From the sequence record PQ850603.1: a stretch of DNA of 43,856 nt; one strand, written 5' to 3'. Positions 22,356 through 28,259 of this stretch are shown here, one piece after another. A program made the translations under genes and the position numbers. The stretch comes from Escherichia phage GertrudWoker_Bas73. The notes under the pieces are model-generated. The model saw nothing but the letters and a program-made list of their open reading frames with translations, was not told the origin of the DNA and did no database searches. The first letter of the stretch is position 1. Every line of letters begins with the position of its first letter.

Positions 22356-24287
22356 ATGTCAAGCGGATGCGGTGACGTTTTAAGCCTGGCGGATTTACAG
22401 ACCGCCAAGAAGCACCATATTTTTGAAGCCGAGGTTATCACAGGTAAATCCGGCGGAGTATCTACGGGTGCTGATATCGATTACGCGACAAATCAGGTTA
22501 CAGGGCAGACTCAGAAGACGCTCCCGGCCGTGTTGCGTGACGCCGGGTTCAGACCTGCGCCATTCACATTCGAAACAGGTGGGACTTTGGGCGTTAACGA
22601 CGCTGACCTGGCGGTGTTGTGGCCAGGGCCATCAGGCGACGGCAACTATTATGCATGGAAAGGTGCCCTGCCAAAAACCATCCCGGCATCTTCAACCCCG
22701 GCGTCTACGGGCGGAGTAGGCCAGACCGCATGGGTTGCCGTTAGTGAAGCTGCATTGCGCCGTGATTTGGCCCTAAGCACTGGCGCAGGGCTAGTTGGTA
22801 CGTCTTCGGGTCGCACAGTGCAAGGCGAGGTTGACCATTTCAAAATAGGGTATATGACACCCGATGATTTCGGCGCGGTGGGTGATGGTGCCACCGACGA
22901 CACCACGCCTTTGCAACAGGCTATTGACTATTGTTCAAGCAACGGTATCGCGTTAAGAATCCCCGCAAAATCTTATGTTTGGAATGGCGGTATTATAACT
23001 TCACCCATAACAATAATCGGTGACAGACGTCCAGATTACAATTTTAGCTCCAATTCTATGTCTAACGGGTCTGTCATAATTGGCAATTTAAGATTTTCCG
23101 CAAGCCAGGTGATTATTAAGTCACTTGGTGTGCGTAGGCCTACAGGCTCCCCCGGAGATTGTCTGGTGTTATCGACCGATAACTATGCTGGTGGGTCTTG
23201 TATTGTTCAAGATGTAGTTGCCGCGGGCCTTTCCGGTTCGGACACGTACCACAGCGTTCTTGTTGAAGGCTACGATTCCGCGCATGTATCTCAAATAACT
23301 GGCGGTTATAATCTTTTTGGCCTCGCGATTAAGTCAAGAAACGTTGTTGCCAGAGGCGTAATAACCGTAAGCTGTGATACTGGCGTTATCATTAAATCTG
23401 ATAGTGAGTTCAGCACGGCAAAAAATGTGGTGCTGGACGGGCACATTAATGTCGGTAATGGTGTTTCCAGTCAAGGTGTTTGGATTTACAGCACAACCGC
23501 ACAACTTGAGCGTATTACCTGCGCAAACTTACAAAGCATCGATTCCGCTATACATATGCGGATTAAGTCCGAAAACGTAGCTAATGACGTGCTAATTGTT
23601 GGGGCAAATTATTCAGGATCTACTTATGCGGATGTTTTAGTCGAAGGCACTTCGGCGGGCACATTGTACAATGTTAGTTTAGATAGTATAACAGCAGTAG
23701 ATAGCCAGAAATTTATGGCTGCAGGTTTCTGTGAACAACTGATGGTAACAGGATTCTATGGGTCCCTGAAACCTGGCGCTCCCGCCGATACTGCGTTTGA
23801 GGTTAGCGCCGCCGTAGGGCTTTTTAGCGGGTCAAATATCCAACTAGTCCGTCAATACGGCAGTGACCTAATGACAATGAATCTCGGTAACAGTTATCTT
23901 AATAATAGATTATCATCTGTTAAGGCGAAAGTAATAGGAGACGGCAAACCTAGACCGGGGTATAAAGAACAGAATCTTAGCGGCGCTGCGGCTTCAATGA
24001 TTGTCGGCGACAGTTTGGGTCCCTCTGGGGTTGTGTCTGTCACCGCGTTATCCACCGGCAGTTCATTCAGCAGTATTTCTATTAATGACGACTATGGTCA
24101 GCCGGTTAAGCCAGGTTTTCTTCTAATAATCCGAAACGCATCCACTATCCCGTTCGTTATGAACCATAATCCAGGGTCTGGTGGAATCGCAAATAACGGG
24201 GCGGTGGGTAAGACCATTGCGGGCGGAGACACTATAATGTACGTTTTTGACGGGACTAACTGGCGTCAGACTCCATCAATAACATAA
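22356..24287 (+). CDS. tailspike / receptor-binding protein
   Basis: 643 aa; N-terminal ~120 aa particle-binding-like region then Gly/Ser/Asn/Val-rich repetitive segment suggesting beta-helix; last structural gene. Confidence 0.6.
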   Translation: MSSGCGDVLSLADLQTAKKHHIFEAEVITGKSGGVSTGADIDYATNQVTGQTQKTLPAVLRDAGFRPAPFTFETGGTLGVNDADLAVLWPGPSGDGNYYAWKGALPKTIPASSTPASTGGVGQTAWVAVSEAALRRDLALSTGAGLVGTSSGRTVQGEVDHFKIGYMTPDDFGAVGDGATDDTTPLQQAIDYCSSNGIALRIPAKSYVWNGGIITSPITIIGDRRPDYNFSSNSMSNGSVIIGNLRFSASQVIIKSLGVRRPTGSPGDCLVLSTDNYAGGSCIVQDVVAAGLSGSDTYHSVLVEGYDSAHVSQITGGYNLFGLAIKSRNVVARGVITVSCDTGVIIKSDSEFSTAKNVVLDGHINVGNGVSSQGVWIYSTTAQLERITCANLQSIDSAIHMRIKSENVANDVLIVGANYSGSTYADVLVEGTSAGTLYNVSLDSITAVDSQKFMAAGFCEQLMVTGFYGSLKPGAPADTAFEVSAAVGLFSGSNIQLVRQYGSDLMTMNLGNSYLNNRLSSVKAKVIGDGKPRPGYKEQNLSGAAASMIVGDSLGPSGVVSVTALSTGSSFSSISINDDYGQPVKPGFLLIIRNASTIPFVMNHNPGSGGIANNGAVGKTIAGGDTIMYVFDGTNWRQTPSIT

Positions 24288-24316: not shown

Positions 24317-24453
24317 TACTCTTCCGATAACTTCTCCAGCACAAACGCCAGTTGCGCATTAGCGGCATCTCTCTGTTGCCGTAGGCGTAGAACCTCCTCT
24401 TCGAGTTCCTTGATACGTTTTTGCAATGCTGGAATCGGGGCTATGATGTTCAT
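24316..24453 (-). CDS. possible small coiled-coil protein (45 aa)
   Basis: ATG overlaps helicase stop (ATGA); heptad-like 'LQKRIKELEEEVLRLRQQRD'. Confidence 0.3.
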   Translation of the reverse strand: MNIIAPIPALQKRIKELEEEVLRLRQQRDAANAQLAFVLEKLSEE

Positions 24454-25874
24454 TTCTTACCTCGTCTCTTCATGTAGTTAAGCAACTCTTCCTGTACCGA
24501 TTTCTTCTCGTCGGTACGCGCGGCAACAACCTCGTCCAGCGTGTCTTTAGCGACTATGTGATAAAGGAACACCGGGCGCTCGTGCCCAGCTTGTTTCTGG
24601 CGAACAGGGCCGATGCGCTCGACAACCTGCAAATAGTGCTCAAGATTCCAGCCTTGTGAAATAAACGCCAGATGATGGCCGCCGTCCTGTAAATTCAAAC
24701 CATGCCCGGCTGACGCAGGGTGTACGCATAAGATTTCTATTTCGCCGCGGTTCCACGCTTCCATCTGCTTATTACCCTTCGCGCCTTTGGAAAACGCCTG
24801 CGCCTGTGGGAATCGCTTAAGGATGCGCTCAAGTTCGTGCTTGAACTGATAGGCGACCAGCAACGGCGCGCCCTGCAACTCCTCCACAATTGACTCCAGC
24901 GCATCAAGTTTCGTGTCGTGCACTTTCTCCCATTCTTTGGTTGATTCGCCATCTGGCCCCGATACATACACGGCACCGGAGGCAATCTGTAGGCACTTCG
25001 ACGTCTTCGCCGCAGCGTTAGCCGCTTCAACTTCTCCGCTTTCCAGTTCCGCGAATAACTTCTCCTCCATATCGATGTACGCCTGACGTGCTTTCTTCGG
25101 CAGGTCGATTTCAACCGGCACAATAATCGGCGCTTCACACCCGAACCACTCGGCGGCGTCAATCGTGAGACTAATGTCCTTCATCTTCTGGTGAATTTCA
25201 TTATCCGCACCCGGGCGTGCGTGGTATTCACGGGCCATCGCAGATTTCCCTTTCTGTACCGAGTTAAACCAGCGGTCGGTGAATGCTGTGTACGATGACC
25301 CCAGGCGCTCGCCTGCGTCGATAAACCAGTTCTGCCCCCACAAGTCCTTGAGGCCGTTTGGTGACGGCGTGCCAGTCAGGTTAATGAAACGCTTAACTTT
25401 GCCAAATGCCACTTTACTAAGCGCCTTTGCCCTCTTGCTGCCTCCAGAACGGCTACGGAATGACTTGAGCTTCGTGCTTTCATCGGCGACGATAACCGTA
25501 AAAGGCCAGTCGTCTTTGCCGTAGTAGTCAATAAGCCACTCGATAACTTCGTAGTTCGTGCACACCACGTTAGCATCTGACTCCAGCGCCGCGATGCGGC
25601 GCTTCTCCAAACCAGTCGCGTCTACGACACGCAGACATGGGAAATTCCACTTAGTTTGTTCCGCCGGCCATGTGCCTGATGCAACGCGCAACGGGGCGAG
25701 GATTAACACGCGGTCCTCTTCTGTAAGCTGCCCGTTGCGGAACAGTCGGTTTAATGTCCACAGTACGCTGCCAGTCTTCCCGGCGCCCATGCTCGCCCAA
25801 ATATTACAGCGATGGTGCCGCAACATGAACGAAGTCATTAGCTTCTGGTATTCGCGCCTTTGAAACTTACTCAT
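24450..25874 (-). CDS. SF2 DNA helicase (DEAD/SNF2-like)
   Basis: Walker A 'SMGAGKTGS', motif II-like 'VIVADEST', C-terminal helicase motifs 'HPASAGHGLNLQ' and 'QVVERIGPVRQ'. Confidence 0.75.
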   Translation of the reverse strand: MSKFQRREYQKLMTSFMLRHHRCNIWASMGAGKTGSVLWTLNRLFRNGQLTEEDRVLILAPLRVASGTWPAEQTKWNFPCLRVVDATGLEKRRIAALESDANVVCTNYEVIEWLIDYYGKDDWPFTVIVADESTKLKSFRSRSGGSKRAKALSKVAFGKVKRFINLTGTPSPNGLKDLWGQNWFIDAGERLGSSYTAFTDRWFNSVQKGKSAMAREYHARPGADNEIHQKMKDISLTIDAAEWFGCEAPIIVPVEIDLPKKARQAYIDMEEKLFAELESGEVEAANAAAKTSKCLQIASGAVYVSGPDGESTKEWEKVHDTKLDALESIVEELQGAPLLVAYQFKHELERILKRFPQAQAFSKGAKGNKQMEAWNRGEIEILCVHPASAGHGLNLQDGGHHLAFISQGWNLEHYLQVVERIGPVRQKQAGHERPVFLYHIVAKDTLDEVVAARTDEKKSVQEELLNYMKRRGKK

Positions 25875-26661
25875 TTACGGCCCCCATGAACGCCTTTATA
25901 AATTCAGCGGCTACTTGCGGGACGATAGCATTGCCGTAACCGCGCAATCGTCCCACTCTGGCGGGTACCCCATTAGCCAGCGGGAATGTGCTGGGTTCAA
26001 CTGGCCTGAATTTTCCATCCCGGCATCCGAGCCAGTCAGCATCTGACCAGAACCCGTTAGGCGGATTGGCTGTGTCAGAGATGCCTCTGTTTGCAGATTG
26101 TGGCCCCCGTTCCTGCCCTGATGGCCTGCTCCCGCCGAGTTGTTCGCACACGGTGTTGGCCAGTTGCTGCGCTCCGAAGAACAATCGATTCCTTTTGTGC
26201 GGTGCGCCGACGCTACAAGCTGGGAGTACGGCAAACCCGACGGCGTAGTCTTCTCTTTCCAGGTGAGTTTGTAAATCGCACATCCACGATTTTGCAATTG
26301 CTGCCGCAACCTGCTCCCCAAAGATGACTGGAGGGTGGCACTCGCTGATGAGGTCGAGGAGCACAGGTGCGAGGTGTCTCTGGTCGAACTGTCCGAGTTG
26401 CTTTCCTGCCGTGCTAAACGGTTGGCAAGGCGGACTTCCCGTCCATATAGGCGTATCTTCAGAAACTCCCGCAAGTCTGAGCGCGAGAGGCCAGCCGCCG
26501 ATACCCGCGAAAAAATGACACTGGGTGAACCCGTCAAGGTCTTCTGGCTTAACTTCGGTAATGCTTCTTTCATCTACAACTCCAAAAGGTATGTGACCCT
26601 GTTTTATCAACTCACGCAGCCACGCGGCTGCGCCTTTATCCCATTCATTGTAATAGTTCAT
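25867..26661 (-). CDS. DNA (cytosine-5)-methyltransferase, compact
   Basis: motif I 'FAGIGG', motif IV '[13 protein letters not shown]' (catalytic Cys), motif VI-like 'FGEQV', motif VIII-like 'KRNRLFF'; only 264 aa. Confidence 0.7.
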
Positions 26662-26849
26662 TTCGCCACCAGCACCAGCTCTTTACGCCCGAACGCCGTA
26701 ACGTTACCGGTTACGTCTTCAATAACCAGTTTACCGTTCGACTCGACGAACACCGTATCAACGGCAACAGGACGACGGGTCTTAACGTTGAAAATCATGT
26801 CGCCTGGTACGATGTCACGTGCTGGTTTGCGGTCATATTCGTGTTTCAT
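26658..26849 (-). CDS. hypothetical protein
   Basis: 63 aa; stop overlaps methyltransferase start (ATGA); preceded by promoter 26884-26912. Confidence 0.45.
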   Translation of the reverse strand: MKHEYDRKPARDIVPGDMIFNVKTRRPVAVDTVFVESNGKLVIEDVTGNVTAFGRKELVLVAK

Positions 26850-27165
26850 TTCTAAATTCCTTATATTGTTGGGGTATGTGCTTACTATAATAGTCTGCTA
26901 TTAGGGTGTCAATCTGTTTTATCGAACCAACGACAAAAACATTTGCGCCACGTTTACGTATACGCTCGTGTTCCCGTAGCTGGTGCGGGTCTGGCTTAGT
27001 GTTTTCGTCTTTCTTCACCTCGACGAACCAGACGATGCCGCCGGGTAGAATTGCCAGCAGGTCAGGAGCGCCTGAACGTCCTTCGTAGGAAAGTTTACGA
27101 ACGAGGCCACCAATAGCCTCGAATCGCTCTTTTGCGTATTTCTGGATGCGGCCCTCTTTAGTCAT
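26833..27165 (-). CDS. VRR-NUC domain nuclease
   Basis: PD-(D/E)XK-like 'GAPDLLAI ... VWFVEVKKDEN'; ~110 aa. Confidence 0.6.
   Translation of the reverse strand: MTKEGRIQKYAKERFEAIGGLVRKLSYEGRSGAPDLLAILPGGIVWFVEVKKDENTKPDPHQLREHERIRKRGANVFVVGSIKQIDTLIADYYSKHIPQQYKEFRNETRI
26884..26912 (-). promoter_or_regulatory. sigma70-like promoter TTGACA-N17-TATAGT with AATAGtctgCTATT palindrome
   Basis: minus strand reads 'TTGACAccctaatagcagactatTATAGT'; lies inside the 3' end of the VRR-NUC ORF. Confidence 0.45.
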
Positions 27166-27314
27166 GACCGCAGCATCCAGGTAAGGAAAACCCAGCCTAG
27201 AATGGCAACACCGGCAAACTGAAAGAACAGGCCGTAACAGAACATAGCAGCTATTCCCGCACCGAGTAACAGTGCGAGCATGGTTACTATGGTCCTAAAT
27301 ACAAACATTGTCAT
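27162..27314 (-). CDS. possible small membrane protein (50 aa)
   Basis: RBS 'gaggggtg'; hydrophobic 'TMLALLLGAGIAAMFCYGLFFQFAGVAILGWVFL'; stop overlaps VRR-NUC start (ATGA). Confidence 0.35.
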   Translation of the reverse strand: MTMFVFRTIVTMLALLLGAGIAAMFCYGLFFQFAGVAILGWVFLTWMLRS

Positions 27315-27396: not shown

Positions 27397-27528
27397 TCAT
27401 TCCAGCACCCACATATAAATTGCGATGAACATGCCCAATATGGCAACCATCATGCCGTATTGTCCCTCGTGACAGTAGACACCGGCGGCAAATCCCGCCA
27501 GTACCGCGATAATCAGTTTACTTGGCAT
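27397..27528 (-). CDS. possible small membrane protein (43 aa)
   Basis: RBS 'gaaggag'; hydrophobic 'LIIAVLAGFAAGVY ... MMVAILGMFIAIYMWVL'; start overlaps HNH gene end. Confidence 0.35.
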   Translation of the reverse strand: MPSKLIIAVLAGFAAGVYCHEGQYGMMVAILGMFIAIYMWVLE

Positions 27529-28213
27529 CTCTACATTCTCCTTCAGGCCACCTATTAGGAAAAGACGGTATATGTGAAACTTCTCTCGCCGCTTTTATTC
27601 TTTTAATGGTGGGACCTATCTCCGTAACCATTTCAATGAATGTAAACCGGTGTCCTCTGGTAAGATTACATGTCTGACAACAAGAAACGCAGTTAGATAC
27701 TATGTGCCCGCTTGTATTATCTATGCGGTCTACCCCGACTTTTGTAGTGCTTCCGCAATAATGGCATGGCTGTGATATTAGTTTAATAACGCTTTCCAGT
27801 GTTAAATCGCAGATAAGCCCTTTTCCTGAATCTGCTCTTTTGTATCCTAACAAAAGCGCGTACGCCCGCGTCCTTTGGTCCTTATTCACCCGTTCCCTGC
27901 GTTGCTTGTTGAGACACTCCCGGCAATCTTTCCTGATATGAGAGCCATTACTTTTATTTCCTTTCCTGAAGTTTTCCTCTGTTAAAGGTTTTACCTCCCC
28001 ACACTTTCTGCATTTAACAGGCTTCCCAGTGAAAACATACCAAGGGCTTTCTCGTCTGGATTTACCTTGTAATTTAAGTTTTTCGTCATACTTTTCCTTC
28101 CTGTTAGCATTTACACACTCTTTACACCAGCGTTGCAGCCCGAGGCGCGTTGACTTTGAAAAATACTCTGTAGTCGCCGGTTTATCTTCGCCGCATCTTG
28201 AACACTTTTTCAT
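27518..28213 (-). CDS. HNH endonuclease (homing endonuclease-like) with N-terminal zinc-ribbon repeats
   Basis: 'CHYCGSTTKVGVDRIDNTSGHIVSNCVSCCQTCN' HNH motif; two 'CxxCGxxKP...CxECxN' repeats; AT-rich versus flanks; track start TTG 28225, ATG 28213 with GGAG RBS preferred. Confidence 0.7.
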   Translation of the reverse strand: MKKCSRCGEDKPATTEYFSKSTRLGLQRWCKECVNANRKEKYDEKLKLQGKSRRESPWYVFTGKPVKCRKCGEVKPLTEENFRKGNKSNGSHIRKDCRECLNKQRRERVNKDQRTRAYALLLGYKRADSGKGLICDLTLESVIKLISQPCHYCGSTTKVGVDRIDNTSGHIVSNCVSCCQTCNLTRGHRFTFIEMVTEIGPTIKRIKAAREVSHIPSFPNRWPEGECRDAK

Positions 28214-28223
28214 TAATAACTCC

Positions 28224-28259
28224 AAAAAAAAATACCGACATAGCCATTATATCGGTATT
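28224..28259 (-). terminator. terminator-like hairpin between polymerase and HNH genes
   Basis: minus strand: 8-bp stem 'aataccga/tcggtatt' with 13-nt loop followed by 'tttttttt'. Confidence 0.4.

Follow-up and report, generated by a model that had tools for sequence, protein, structure and literature searches.

The minus strand of Escherichia phage GertrudWoker_Bas73 (PQ850603.1) carries, at one place, two overlapping reading frames whose products are probably the two subunits of a single orphan C5-cytosine DNA methyltransferase. Within the window, which is the whole stretch of 43,856 nucleotides that was analysed, the outer ORF (frame A) runs from ATG to TAA at 25867..26661 and encodes 264 residues, and it is assigned as the catalytic, or alpha-like, subunit on the basis of the ORF, PF00145, phrog_363 and hhalign. 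Wholly inside it, in the +1 frame (25911..26573, minus strand), lies a 220-codon ORF (frame B) encoding a putative specificity, or beta-like, subunit. A prior reading of the letters alone (the sequence-only reading) had described the 264-residue ORF, which the ORF scan confirmed, and had overlooked the nested one. Approximately 100 codons (frame A 104–156 and 205–240) encode two conserved proteins simultaneously, and both are under selection.

The phage is virulent and Kagunavirus-like. The outer gene forms part of its replication operon and has as neighbours an SNF2 helicase gene (24450–25874), a 63-residue ORF (26658–26849), a VRR-NUC nuclease and an HNH/EndoVII-like protein. The start of frame A overlaps the stop of the upstream 63-residue ORF in the sequence ATGA (26658..26661, minus strand), and its stop overlaps the longest-ORF start of the helicase gene in ATGAGTAA (25867..25874, minus strand). 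The overlap with the helicase gene proposed earlier depends on where the helicase begins; it amounts to 8 nt if the ATG at 25874 is used, as in the K1G RefSeq record, and disappears with the start annotated in phage Bas74, which is 36 nt further downstream. No restriction endonuclease was found among the neighbouring genes, as had been noted before, and none is annotated in the Bas74 genome (97.9% identical); the cognate endonuclease gene that marks a Type II restriction-modification system is absent from beside the methyltransferase gene.

Frame A matches PF00145 in Pfam with 59.4 bits (cut-off 22, E = 5e-16), the match being confined to residues 72–164 (profile positions 64–160), and it also matches phrog_363 (1.5e-82) and M.HhaI (hhalign probability 98.4%). 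Its score against NCBIfam TIGR00675 'dcm' (40.4 bits) lies below the curated cut-off of 100.65. Motifs I and IV–VIII can be aligned to those of the canonical monomeric M.HhaI (PDB 10mh), and all catalytic residues are kept. These motifs, all on the minus strand, include the AdoMet-binding loop FAGIGG of motif I (residues 51–56, 26494..26511); motif IV, PPCQPFS, with the catalytic Cys79 (residues 77–83, 26413..26433); motif VI, FGEQV, the ENV equivalent with Glu116, which is aligned to HhaI FMENV (residues 114–118, 26308..26322); and motif VIII, PHKRNR, the QxRxR equivalent with Arg157 and Arg159, which is aligned to HhaI PQKRER (residues 154–159, 26185..26202). Motif X, GNAIVPQ (residues 243–249, 25915..25935, minus strand), was assigned by inspection against HhaI GNSVVINV. 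Across 61 diverse relatives, F50, F51, G53, G55 and W57 around motif I, C79 and S83 of motif IV, G115, E116, Q117 and V118 of motif VI, R157 and R159 of motif VIII and G243 of motif X are invariant, while P78, Q80, P81 and F82 of motif IV and N244, A245 and I246 of motif X are at least 90% conserved. The motifs that had been recognised by eye (I, IV and sequences resembling VI and VIII) are thus present in the HhaI alignment, in which no catalytic residue is lost, and the view of the gene as an orphan C5-methyltransferase is supported by catalytic motifs that are intact and conserved, by the missing endonuclease partner and by the position in the replication operon.

The canonical order that had been ascribed to these motifs did not hold up. 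Motifs II–III are absent between I and IV and lie instead at the N-terminus, ahead of motif I, in residues 1–41 (26539..26661, minus strand), as indicated by phmmer, hhalign and reordering in silico. Residues 3–13 pair with HhaI 37–47 in phmmer, which places YYNEWDK opposite HhaI YSNEWDK, and hhalign shows a gap of 35 residues where II–III would canonically lie (HhaI 34–70). Moving the II–III segment behind motif I in silico raised the PF00145 score from 59.4 to 79.5 bits (+20), and the reordered frame A gave a contiguous match to profile positions 5–160. The AF2 model of frame A, for which the alignment consisted of close relatives only, had a mean pLDDT of 40; it was unusable and was left out of the fold search, so that support for the presumed permuted fold comes from sequence. 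Compared with M.HhaI, frame A differs both in having II–III N-terminal to I and in lacking an in-frame target-recognition domain (TRD) or motif IX. In the circularly permuted C5-methyltransferases M.BssHII and plant DRM2, the break falls between large blocks (IX–X before I, or VI–X before I–V). Frame A resembles these enzymes in departing from the order I–X while presumably keeping the fold, but in the phage protein only the II–III segment has moved before I.

Between motif VIII and the conserved C-terminus, where the TRD is expected, frame A contains a low-complexity linker (residues 163–203, 26053..26175, minus strand) that varies in length and is unconserved in the alignment of relatives, whose linkers are rich in R, E, G, Q and S and cannot be aligned. 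The earlier remark that little room is left for a TRD is borne out by this stretch of about 40 residues. Neither a TRD nor motif IX is encoded in frame between VIII and X; a motif IX-like sequence is found in the +1 frame only. The linker is followed by a conserved segment (residues 204–242, 25936..26052, minus strand) that is dual-coded with the C-terminus of frame B. Its invariant residues W205, D215 and R219, and C213 and P227, which are at least 90% conserved, stand at positions on which frame B places no constraint.

Frame B starts 88 nt inside frame A and overlaps it by approximately 660 nt, which is 83% of the outer gene. A Shine-Dalgarno-like element, GGAG (26580..26583, minus strand), is positioned 6 nt upstream of the frame B ATG (26571–26573) within frame A codons G27–V28. 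The frame B start chosen is an ATG in 65 of the 66 loci listed, at frame A codons 21–46 in 58 of them, and (A/C)GGAG or GGGG commonly stands just ahead of it in these loci. The initiation signals of frame B are conserved, and its cassettes, described below, are shuffled among relatives. The frame B protein matches phrog_1008 (8e-53), and 5129 homologues were found in a 90%-identity cluster database.

Four parts can be distinguished in the frame B protein. The leader of about 70 residues is disordered and unconserved. It is followed by a predicted helix and beta-hairpin domain (residues 72–126, 26196..26360, minus strand), delimited by AF2 and by conserved columns, which overlaps frame A motifs VI–VIII and has the consensus SSxSAxLQSSLxSRL...GSxLYKLTWKxxxTPxG...ASxxRT. 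AF2 predicts a helix at residues 76–95 and strands at 101–109 and 115–123 with pLDDT 81–89, the model being confident at residues 76–123 only. A single 'WPTP' cassette of type 'A' comes next (residues 138–168, 26070..26162, minus strand) and is a putative target-recognition module. With its start at frame A codon 163, the first WPTP cassette follows immediately on motif VIII, and among 72 close relatives 22 cassette types occur in 45 arrangements of one to three cassettes. This position and variability, together with a resemblance by eye to the cores of TL-type TRDs, suggest that the cassettes are putative TRDs. Lastly, a motif IX-like segment (residues 191–208, 25950..26003, minus strand) is nearly invariant in 132 relatives; the sole match of the B family to M.HhaI in hhalign pairs residues 189–209 with HhaI 271–291 (motif IX), and at E = 0.11 this match is weak and not significant. 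No match to frame B was found among solved structures with either the single sequence or a 132-sequence profile, none in Pfam or NCBIfam, and nothing below E = 0.2 in the PDB when the predicted fold was searched with Foldseek. None of the 10 B homologues scanned, and none of the approximately 240 listed with a Pfam column, carries an in-frame catalytic domain. Two of the 10 scanned homologues are fused to Dam or DUF2800 instead.

A naturally heterodimeric C5-methyltransferase, M.EcoHK31I of E. coli HK31, was reportedly described by Lee, Kam and Shaw in 1995. [quoted passage not shown] The same account describes the first ~42 residues of beta as dispensable, notes that beta has its own internal starts and ascribes the TRD to alpha (PMC2836561). 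Judged by this description, the phage locus shares with M.EcoHK31I a second polypeptide encoded wholly within the first gene in another frame and an outer ORF with I–VIII and X. The end of the nested +1 ORF weakly resembles motif IX, and the disordered leader of frame B may correspond to the dispensable start of beta. It differs from what is described for M.EcoHK31I in four respects: the phage gene is an orphan in a virulent phage rather than a member of a restriction-modification system; the TRD place of its alpha-like chain is an unconstrained linker, with variable cassettes in the nested protein; the nested ORF takes up most of the outer gene; and motifs II–III are displaced.

By analogy with M.EcoHK31I and from the motif resemblances, the two phage proteins can be fitted into one enzyme. 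Frame A would be the catalytic subunit, with an AdoMet-binding and catalytic Rossmann core in which II–III come first, followed by I, IV, VI, VIII, the linker, the C-terminal segment and X. Frame B, translated from its own GGAG-ATG start, would consist of the disordered leader, the helix-hairpin domain, the one WPTP cassette and the motif IX-like end, and it is predicted to bind A and to supply the small domain, that is, target recognition and motif IX. The complex would then methylate the DNA of the replicating phage, the cassette determining at which sites, and this could protect the phage narrowly from host restriction. In the BASEL study, isolates of Kagunavirus, the near-identical Bas74 among them, were reported to be highly sensitive to the restriction-modification systems tested (PMC11990801), so any such protection would be narrow; an anti-restriction role of the candidate methyltransferase is plausible.

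The alternative that fares best, although we regard it as improbable, is that frame B encodes a real protein unconnected with methylation, for example an anti-defence or DNA-binding factor that shares the DNA by overprinting. It would account for the lack of significant similarity to known domains and is in keeping with the apparent fusion of some B relatives to Dam or DUF2800/PD-(D/E)XK modules. However, B occurs solely within this methyltransferase family at every locus examined, its variable cassettes are placed exactly at the TRD position of C5-methyltransferases, its C-terminus resembles the motif IX that is absent from A, and the same layout has a precedent in M.EcoHK31I.

Less room is left for the view taken in the sequence-only reading, in which the product of frame A is by itself a minimal but complete orphan methyltransferase, relaxed in specificity and with only a very short TRD; the +1 ORF would then be a non-functional by-product of composition. 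All catalytic motifs and motif X are indeed in frame A, and it is the only frame annotated in Bas74 and many other records. Against this view, the +1 frame is open over about 90% of the gene in 86 of 86 phage and viral loci (74 + 12; 190–482 codons), which range over Guernseyvirinae, epsilon15, eiAU, Xanthomonas, Rhodobacter and Vequintavirus phages, and in 70 of 73 loci in bacterial genomes (156/159 in all). The +2 frame is stop-rich; in the 73 bacterial-genome loci the median open share of the gene is 90% for the +1 frame and 23% for the +2 frame. When the codons of frame A were shuffled synonymously, P lay between <0.0005 and 0.011 at the individual loci. Together with the +2 frame control, these shuffle tests reject the idea that the +1 frame is open by chance or through composition. 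Synonymous sites of A are moreover frozen exactly where B is conserved: the major-base fraction at frame A third positions is 0.40–0.47 in codons 1–100, 0.75 in codons 104–156 (with many codons 0.9–1.0 fixed) and 0.83 in codons 205–240. Frame A residues in turn remain conserved at sites where frame B is indifferent, and with synonymous A sites nearly fixed where B is conserved, this indicates purifying selection on both frames. The conserved start signal of B and its partly confident predicted fold also speak against a by-product, and a putative TRD region that is wholly unconserved in A would be odd for a recognition element. The short or relaxed recognition sequence deduced from compactness is not supported either. 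At the TRD place frame A has an unconstrained linker, and TRD-like cassettes together with a segment resembling motif IX are found in the conserved protein of the +1 frame; given these features, the small size of the frame A protein most likely marks a split enzyme and not a minimal one.

Marginally less probable again is a single chain made by two programmed frameshifts, in which ribosomes would leave A after motif VIII by a +1 shift, translate the WPTP cassette and IX from B and return to A by a −1 shift for X, giving the canonical arrangement I–VIII/TRD/IX/X; its geometry fits, in that the first WPTP cassette directly follows motif VIII and about 5 codons separate the end of the motif IX-like EWD from the frame A GN of motif X further on, but B is already conserved and selected at residues 72–126, far ahead of the point where ribosomes would shift, B possesses a conserved SD-ATG of its own, frame A 204–242 is independently conserved and would be skipped, selection keeps frame A open across the linker (51/51 loci, compared with 31% of frame-B-synonymous shuffles), third positions near codons 157–162 are variable, so that no conserved slippery site is evident, and two shifts in one gene would, to our knowledge, be unprecedented. 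A chimera of A1–163, the B cassette and IX, and A motif X scored 57.4 bits against PF00145 (59.4 for the native protein) and 77.5 bits when de-permuted (79.5), and in the absence of any gain the frameshift model was not adopted as the main one.

The two-subunit reading can also be placed beside other C5-methyltransferases. M.AquI has two subunits, split in or near the variable region, and its ORFs are consecutive with a short overlap. The phage locus would likewise specify two polypeptides, with ORFs that are nested rather than consecutive. The orphan enzymes of Bacillus phages SPR, phi3T and rho11s are multispecific single polypeptides with tandem interchangeable modules between VIII and IX. 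The one to three shuffled WPTP cassettes in relatives of the phage locus recall these modules. Unlike them, the cassettes belong to a second, nested protein, which has only one in this phage, and the catalytic chain carries no tandem TRDs.

A wider proposition is held tentatively, with somewhat less than even confidence: the C5-methyltransferases of a very large phage and prophage family may be split enzymes in which a specificity subunit with exchangeable cassettes is nested in the +1 frame of the catalytic gene, perhaps as the general form of the M.EcoHK31I design. The nested protein is matched by 9650 representatives of 50%-identity clusters. No description of the nested arrangement in phages was found in the literature searched, and "Mte8-like" was found as an annotation label only. 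A nested +1 specificity subunit combined with displaced II–III motifs would be new for phages, the nested two-protein design being known from one bacterial enzyme.

If the two-subunit model is correct, it would account for thousands of phage "Dcm-like" genes that seem too short for DNA recognition, and the overlap would rank with the same-strand gene overlaps of dsDNA phages that are longest and most widely conserved. The specificity of phage methylation could be changed through cassette exchange with the catalytic protein untouched. The cassettes lie in dual-coded DNA, so every swapped-in cassette would have to read in two frames, and the locus would offer a natural system for the evolution of dual-coding sequence. 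It would also provide a set of small exchangeable recognition cassettes on a naturally split methyltransferase scaffold; tools for targeted methylation have already been built on the split scaffold of M.EcoHK31I. Standard annotation would be missing the probable specificity subunit or mislabelling it as a second methyltransferase. In the K1G RefSeq record, frame B is annotated as a separate nested CDS.

The window derives from a Kagunavirus-like E. coli siphovirus and, over 24400–27200, is 97.9% identical to SonjaBuckley_Bas74 and ~91% identical to the K1G-type phages. The 264-residue C5-cytosine methyltransferase ORF (frame A; 25867–26661, minus strand, ATG to TAA) belongs to a compact replication operon on the minus strand, in the order VRR-NUC nuclease, 63-aa ORF, methyltransferase, and SNF2 helicase. 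The frame A ATG shares ATGA with the stop of the upstream 63-aa ORF, and its own stop overlaps the helicase start at ATGAGTAA if the longest helicase ORF is taken. The start of the helicase (24450–25874, minus strand) is ambiguous: the longest ORF, from 25874, is the K1G annotation and overlaps the methyltransferase stop by 8 nt, whereas the Bas74 annotation begins 36 nt downstream, so the overlap with the helicase gene proposed in the sequence-only reading holds for the former start and is lost with the latter. The absence of an endonuclease partner, also proposed there, agrees with these operon neighbors and with the Bas74 genome, across the whole of which no restriction endonuclease is annotated. 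A 189-codon plus-strand ORF (26335–26904) is antisense to the 5′ half of the methyltransferase gene and to the 63-aa ORF.

Frame A matches PF00145 with 59.4 bits (Pfam cut-off 22), the match being limited to residues 72–164 (profile 64–160), and matches phrog_363 "DNA methyltransferase" (PHROG) along its full length. Alignment with M.HhaI by phmmer and hhalign, using a query checked to be identical to PDB 10mh_A, covers motif I and motifs IV–VIII with 98.4% probability. The motifs FAGIGG, PPCQPFS, FGEQV, PHKRNR, and GNAIVPQ are found, and the catalytic residues C79, E116, R157, and R159 are kept on alignment, being invariant, as is G243, in 61 relatives of 51–83% identity. Motifs I and IV are only ~22 residues apart, and a 35-residue gap in hhalign falls exactly at HhaI motifs II–III. 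Because this gap lies at the canonical place, the N-terminal YYNEWDK aligns with HhaI YSNEWDK, and in silico placement of residues 42–66 before residues 1–41 raises the PF00145 score from 59.4 to 79.5 bits with a contiguous match to profile 5–160, motifs II–III precede motif I throughout the frame A family. The compact 264-residue methyltransferase described earlier thus stands as to its ORF and catalytic motifs, but not as to motif order. Motif VIII is linked to the conserved C-terminal block by residues 163–203, a low-complexity, unconserved stretch whose length varies among relatives; it is unlike a recognition domain in appearance, in line with the earlier remark that the protein leaves little room for one. 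One 429-aa frame A relative (P0240) is longer by an insertion of ~150 aa that separates RPVE from FPL, within the part dual-coded in the window.

A second ORF of 220 codons (frame B; 25911–26573, minus strand) is located wholly within frame A in the +1 frame, with a GGAG element (26580–26583, minus strand) 6 nt before its ATG. Some GenBank records and PHROGs already include this nested ORF: the K1G RefSeq entry carries both coding sequences, gp34 and gp35, with the GenBank label "Mte8-like", and frame B is present as phrog_1008. Frame A alone is annotated in Bas74 and most other records. The frame B family is very large (5129 matches among 90%-identity clusters and 9650 50%-identity cluster representatives, E ≤ 0.001), and in none of the homologues examined is a PF00145 domain encoded in frame. 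Two homologues, P0243 and P0244, run on into a Dam N6-adenine methyltransferase (PF05869) and a DUF2800/PD-(D/E)XK nuclease, and these may be genuine fusions or result from read-through in gene calling.

Among frame A homologues from viral contigs (44–73% identical), the +1 frame is open for 220–482 codons in 74/74 loci with the TQCHF landmark, in most starting 16–43 codons after the frame A start, while the +2 frame contains 6–29 stops; the remaining 12 viral loci and one Rhodobacter phage show the same pattern. For 73 loci from bacterial genomes (Proteobacteria, Acidobacteriota, Verrucomicrobiota, and others), the median share of the gene left open is 90% in the +1 frame and 23% in +2. By tblastn, epsilon15, eiAU, Xanthomonas, Rhodobacter, and Vequintavirus phages have a frame B match in the +1 frame under the annotated methyltransferase coding sequence. 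Synonymous codon shuffles within frame A give P values of <0.0005 to 0.011 per locus for open stretches this long. The nested-gene methyltransferase also occurs in bacterial genomes of many phyla (L089–L168), with at least five copies in Symbiopectobacterium sp. RP (L133, L151, L153, L155, and L157); these copies are presumably prophages.

Third positions of frame A are second positions of frame B, and their major-base fraction was scored at conserved four- and six-fold-degenerate frame A residues across 69 codon-aligned genes. It is 0.40 for codons 1–29 and 0.47 for 30–100, rising to 0.75 for 104–156 and 0.83 for 205–240, with many single codons in the latter two segments reaching 0.9–1.0; these segments coincide exactly with amino-acid-conserved blocks of frame B. 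W205, C213, D215, R219, and P227 of frame A are conserved where frame B is unconstraining, so frame A is selected there too. Its variable middle is unconserved yet open in 51/51 loci, compared with a mean of only 31% in frame-B-synonymous shuffles, from which it follows that translation of frame A continues as far as motif X. Of the 66 loci listed, 65 have ATG as the chosen frame B start; it falls at frame A codons 21–46 in 58 of them and often follows AGGAG, CGGAG, or GGGG. The Arg-Ser of frame A "DERSI" (codons 32–33 in L003–L085, equivalent to window 26563–26568) is in many lineages encoded AGG AGY or CGG AGY, forming a Shine-Dalgarno element, and the following GAT G forms the ATG, so that codon choice in frame A creates the nested gene's ribosome-binding site. 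Taken together, the open-frame, selection, and start-signal results argue for a second functional protein that initiates independently.

Alignments divide frame B into four parts: an S/T/P/R-rich leader, which looks conserved on account of frame A motifs I–IV; the block SSxSAxLQSSLxSRL...GSxLYKLTWKxxxTPxG...ASxxRT; at least one module, or cassette, starting WPTP; and a nearly invariant C-terminus. AF2 (132 sequences) predicts disorder for residues 1–70 and a helix (76–95) and β-hairpin (101–123) with pLDDT 81–89, the rest being poorly defined, a predicted pattern that would fit a subunit folding on its partner. The 72 close relatives compared carry one to three cassettes each, of 22 types and in 45 different arrangements, with frame A length tracking the insertions; the window has a single cassette. 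Judged by eye, WPTPTARDHKDG-type cassette starts seem to resemble the TL-type target-recognition domain (TRD) core, e.g. HhaI ITLSAYGGG. The single hhalign match of the family to M.HhaI, frame B 189–209 to HhaI 271–291 (motif IX, LxPxxxxxxMGYPxx[YW]), has E = 0.11 and is not significant alone. The first WPTP starts at frame A codon 163, directly after motif VIII, and the motif IX-like EWD ends ~5 codons before the GN of motif X, so that the layout reads like a canonical VIII/TRD/IX/X gene with its TRD–IX part in the other frame.

We therefore consider it probable that the nested genes encode a two-subunit methyltransferase, in which frame A would supply the large domain and frame B the small domain carrying specificity; this replaces the earlier compact, relaxed-specificity reading. 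That the nested protein is functional but unrelated to methylation is unlikely, given that frame B is confined to this gene family, that its cassettes occupy the site of a TRD, and that its C-terminal end is motif IX-like. The selection tests contradict a self-sufficient minimal enzyme whose second frame carries no meaning, and this reading is very improbable. Least credible is a double programmed frameshift, since frame B has its own start and shows conservation ahead of every point at which a shift could occur, frame A 204–242 is conserved independently, no conserved slippery site is evident around frame A codons 157–162 in the codon alignment, and an in silico frameshift chimera gains nothing against Pfam; the same observations favor two subunits.

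[quoted passage not shown] Unlike M.EcoHK31I, the window gene is an orphan in a virulent phage, its overlap comprises 83% of the outer gene, motifs II–III are displaced in frame A, and it is the nested chain that carries the variable recognition-like cassettes, the TRD position of the outer chain being unconstrained. No description of a nested two-gene methyltransferase in phages was found in the literature searched. According to a transcriptome study of a related phage, late-peaking genes include the C5-methylase and a neighboring "N-methyltransferase" gene, possibly the nested ORF. Kagunavirus isolates including Bas74 were highly sensitive to the RM systems tested in the BASEL study (PMC11990801), and the enzyme therefore gives no broad protection; this sensitivity has no bearing on sequence-specific 5mC protection.

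Elsewhere in the window, a 235-aa ORF (27518–28225, minus strand) with repeated CxxC zinc-ribbon-like motifs has no Pfam match; it matches several HNH families and phrog_1035 "endonuclease VII" (4e-30), with a further match of its first 119 residues to phrog_5558 "Lar-like restriction alleviation protein" (6e-12). The tailspike ORF (22356–24287, plus strand) encodes 643 aa versus 726 aa at the same place in Bas74, which suggests a receptor-binding module swap.
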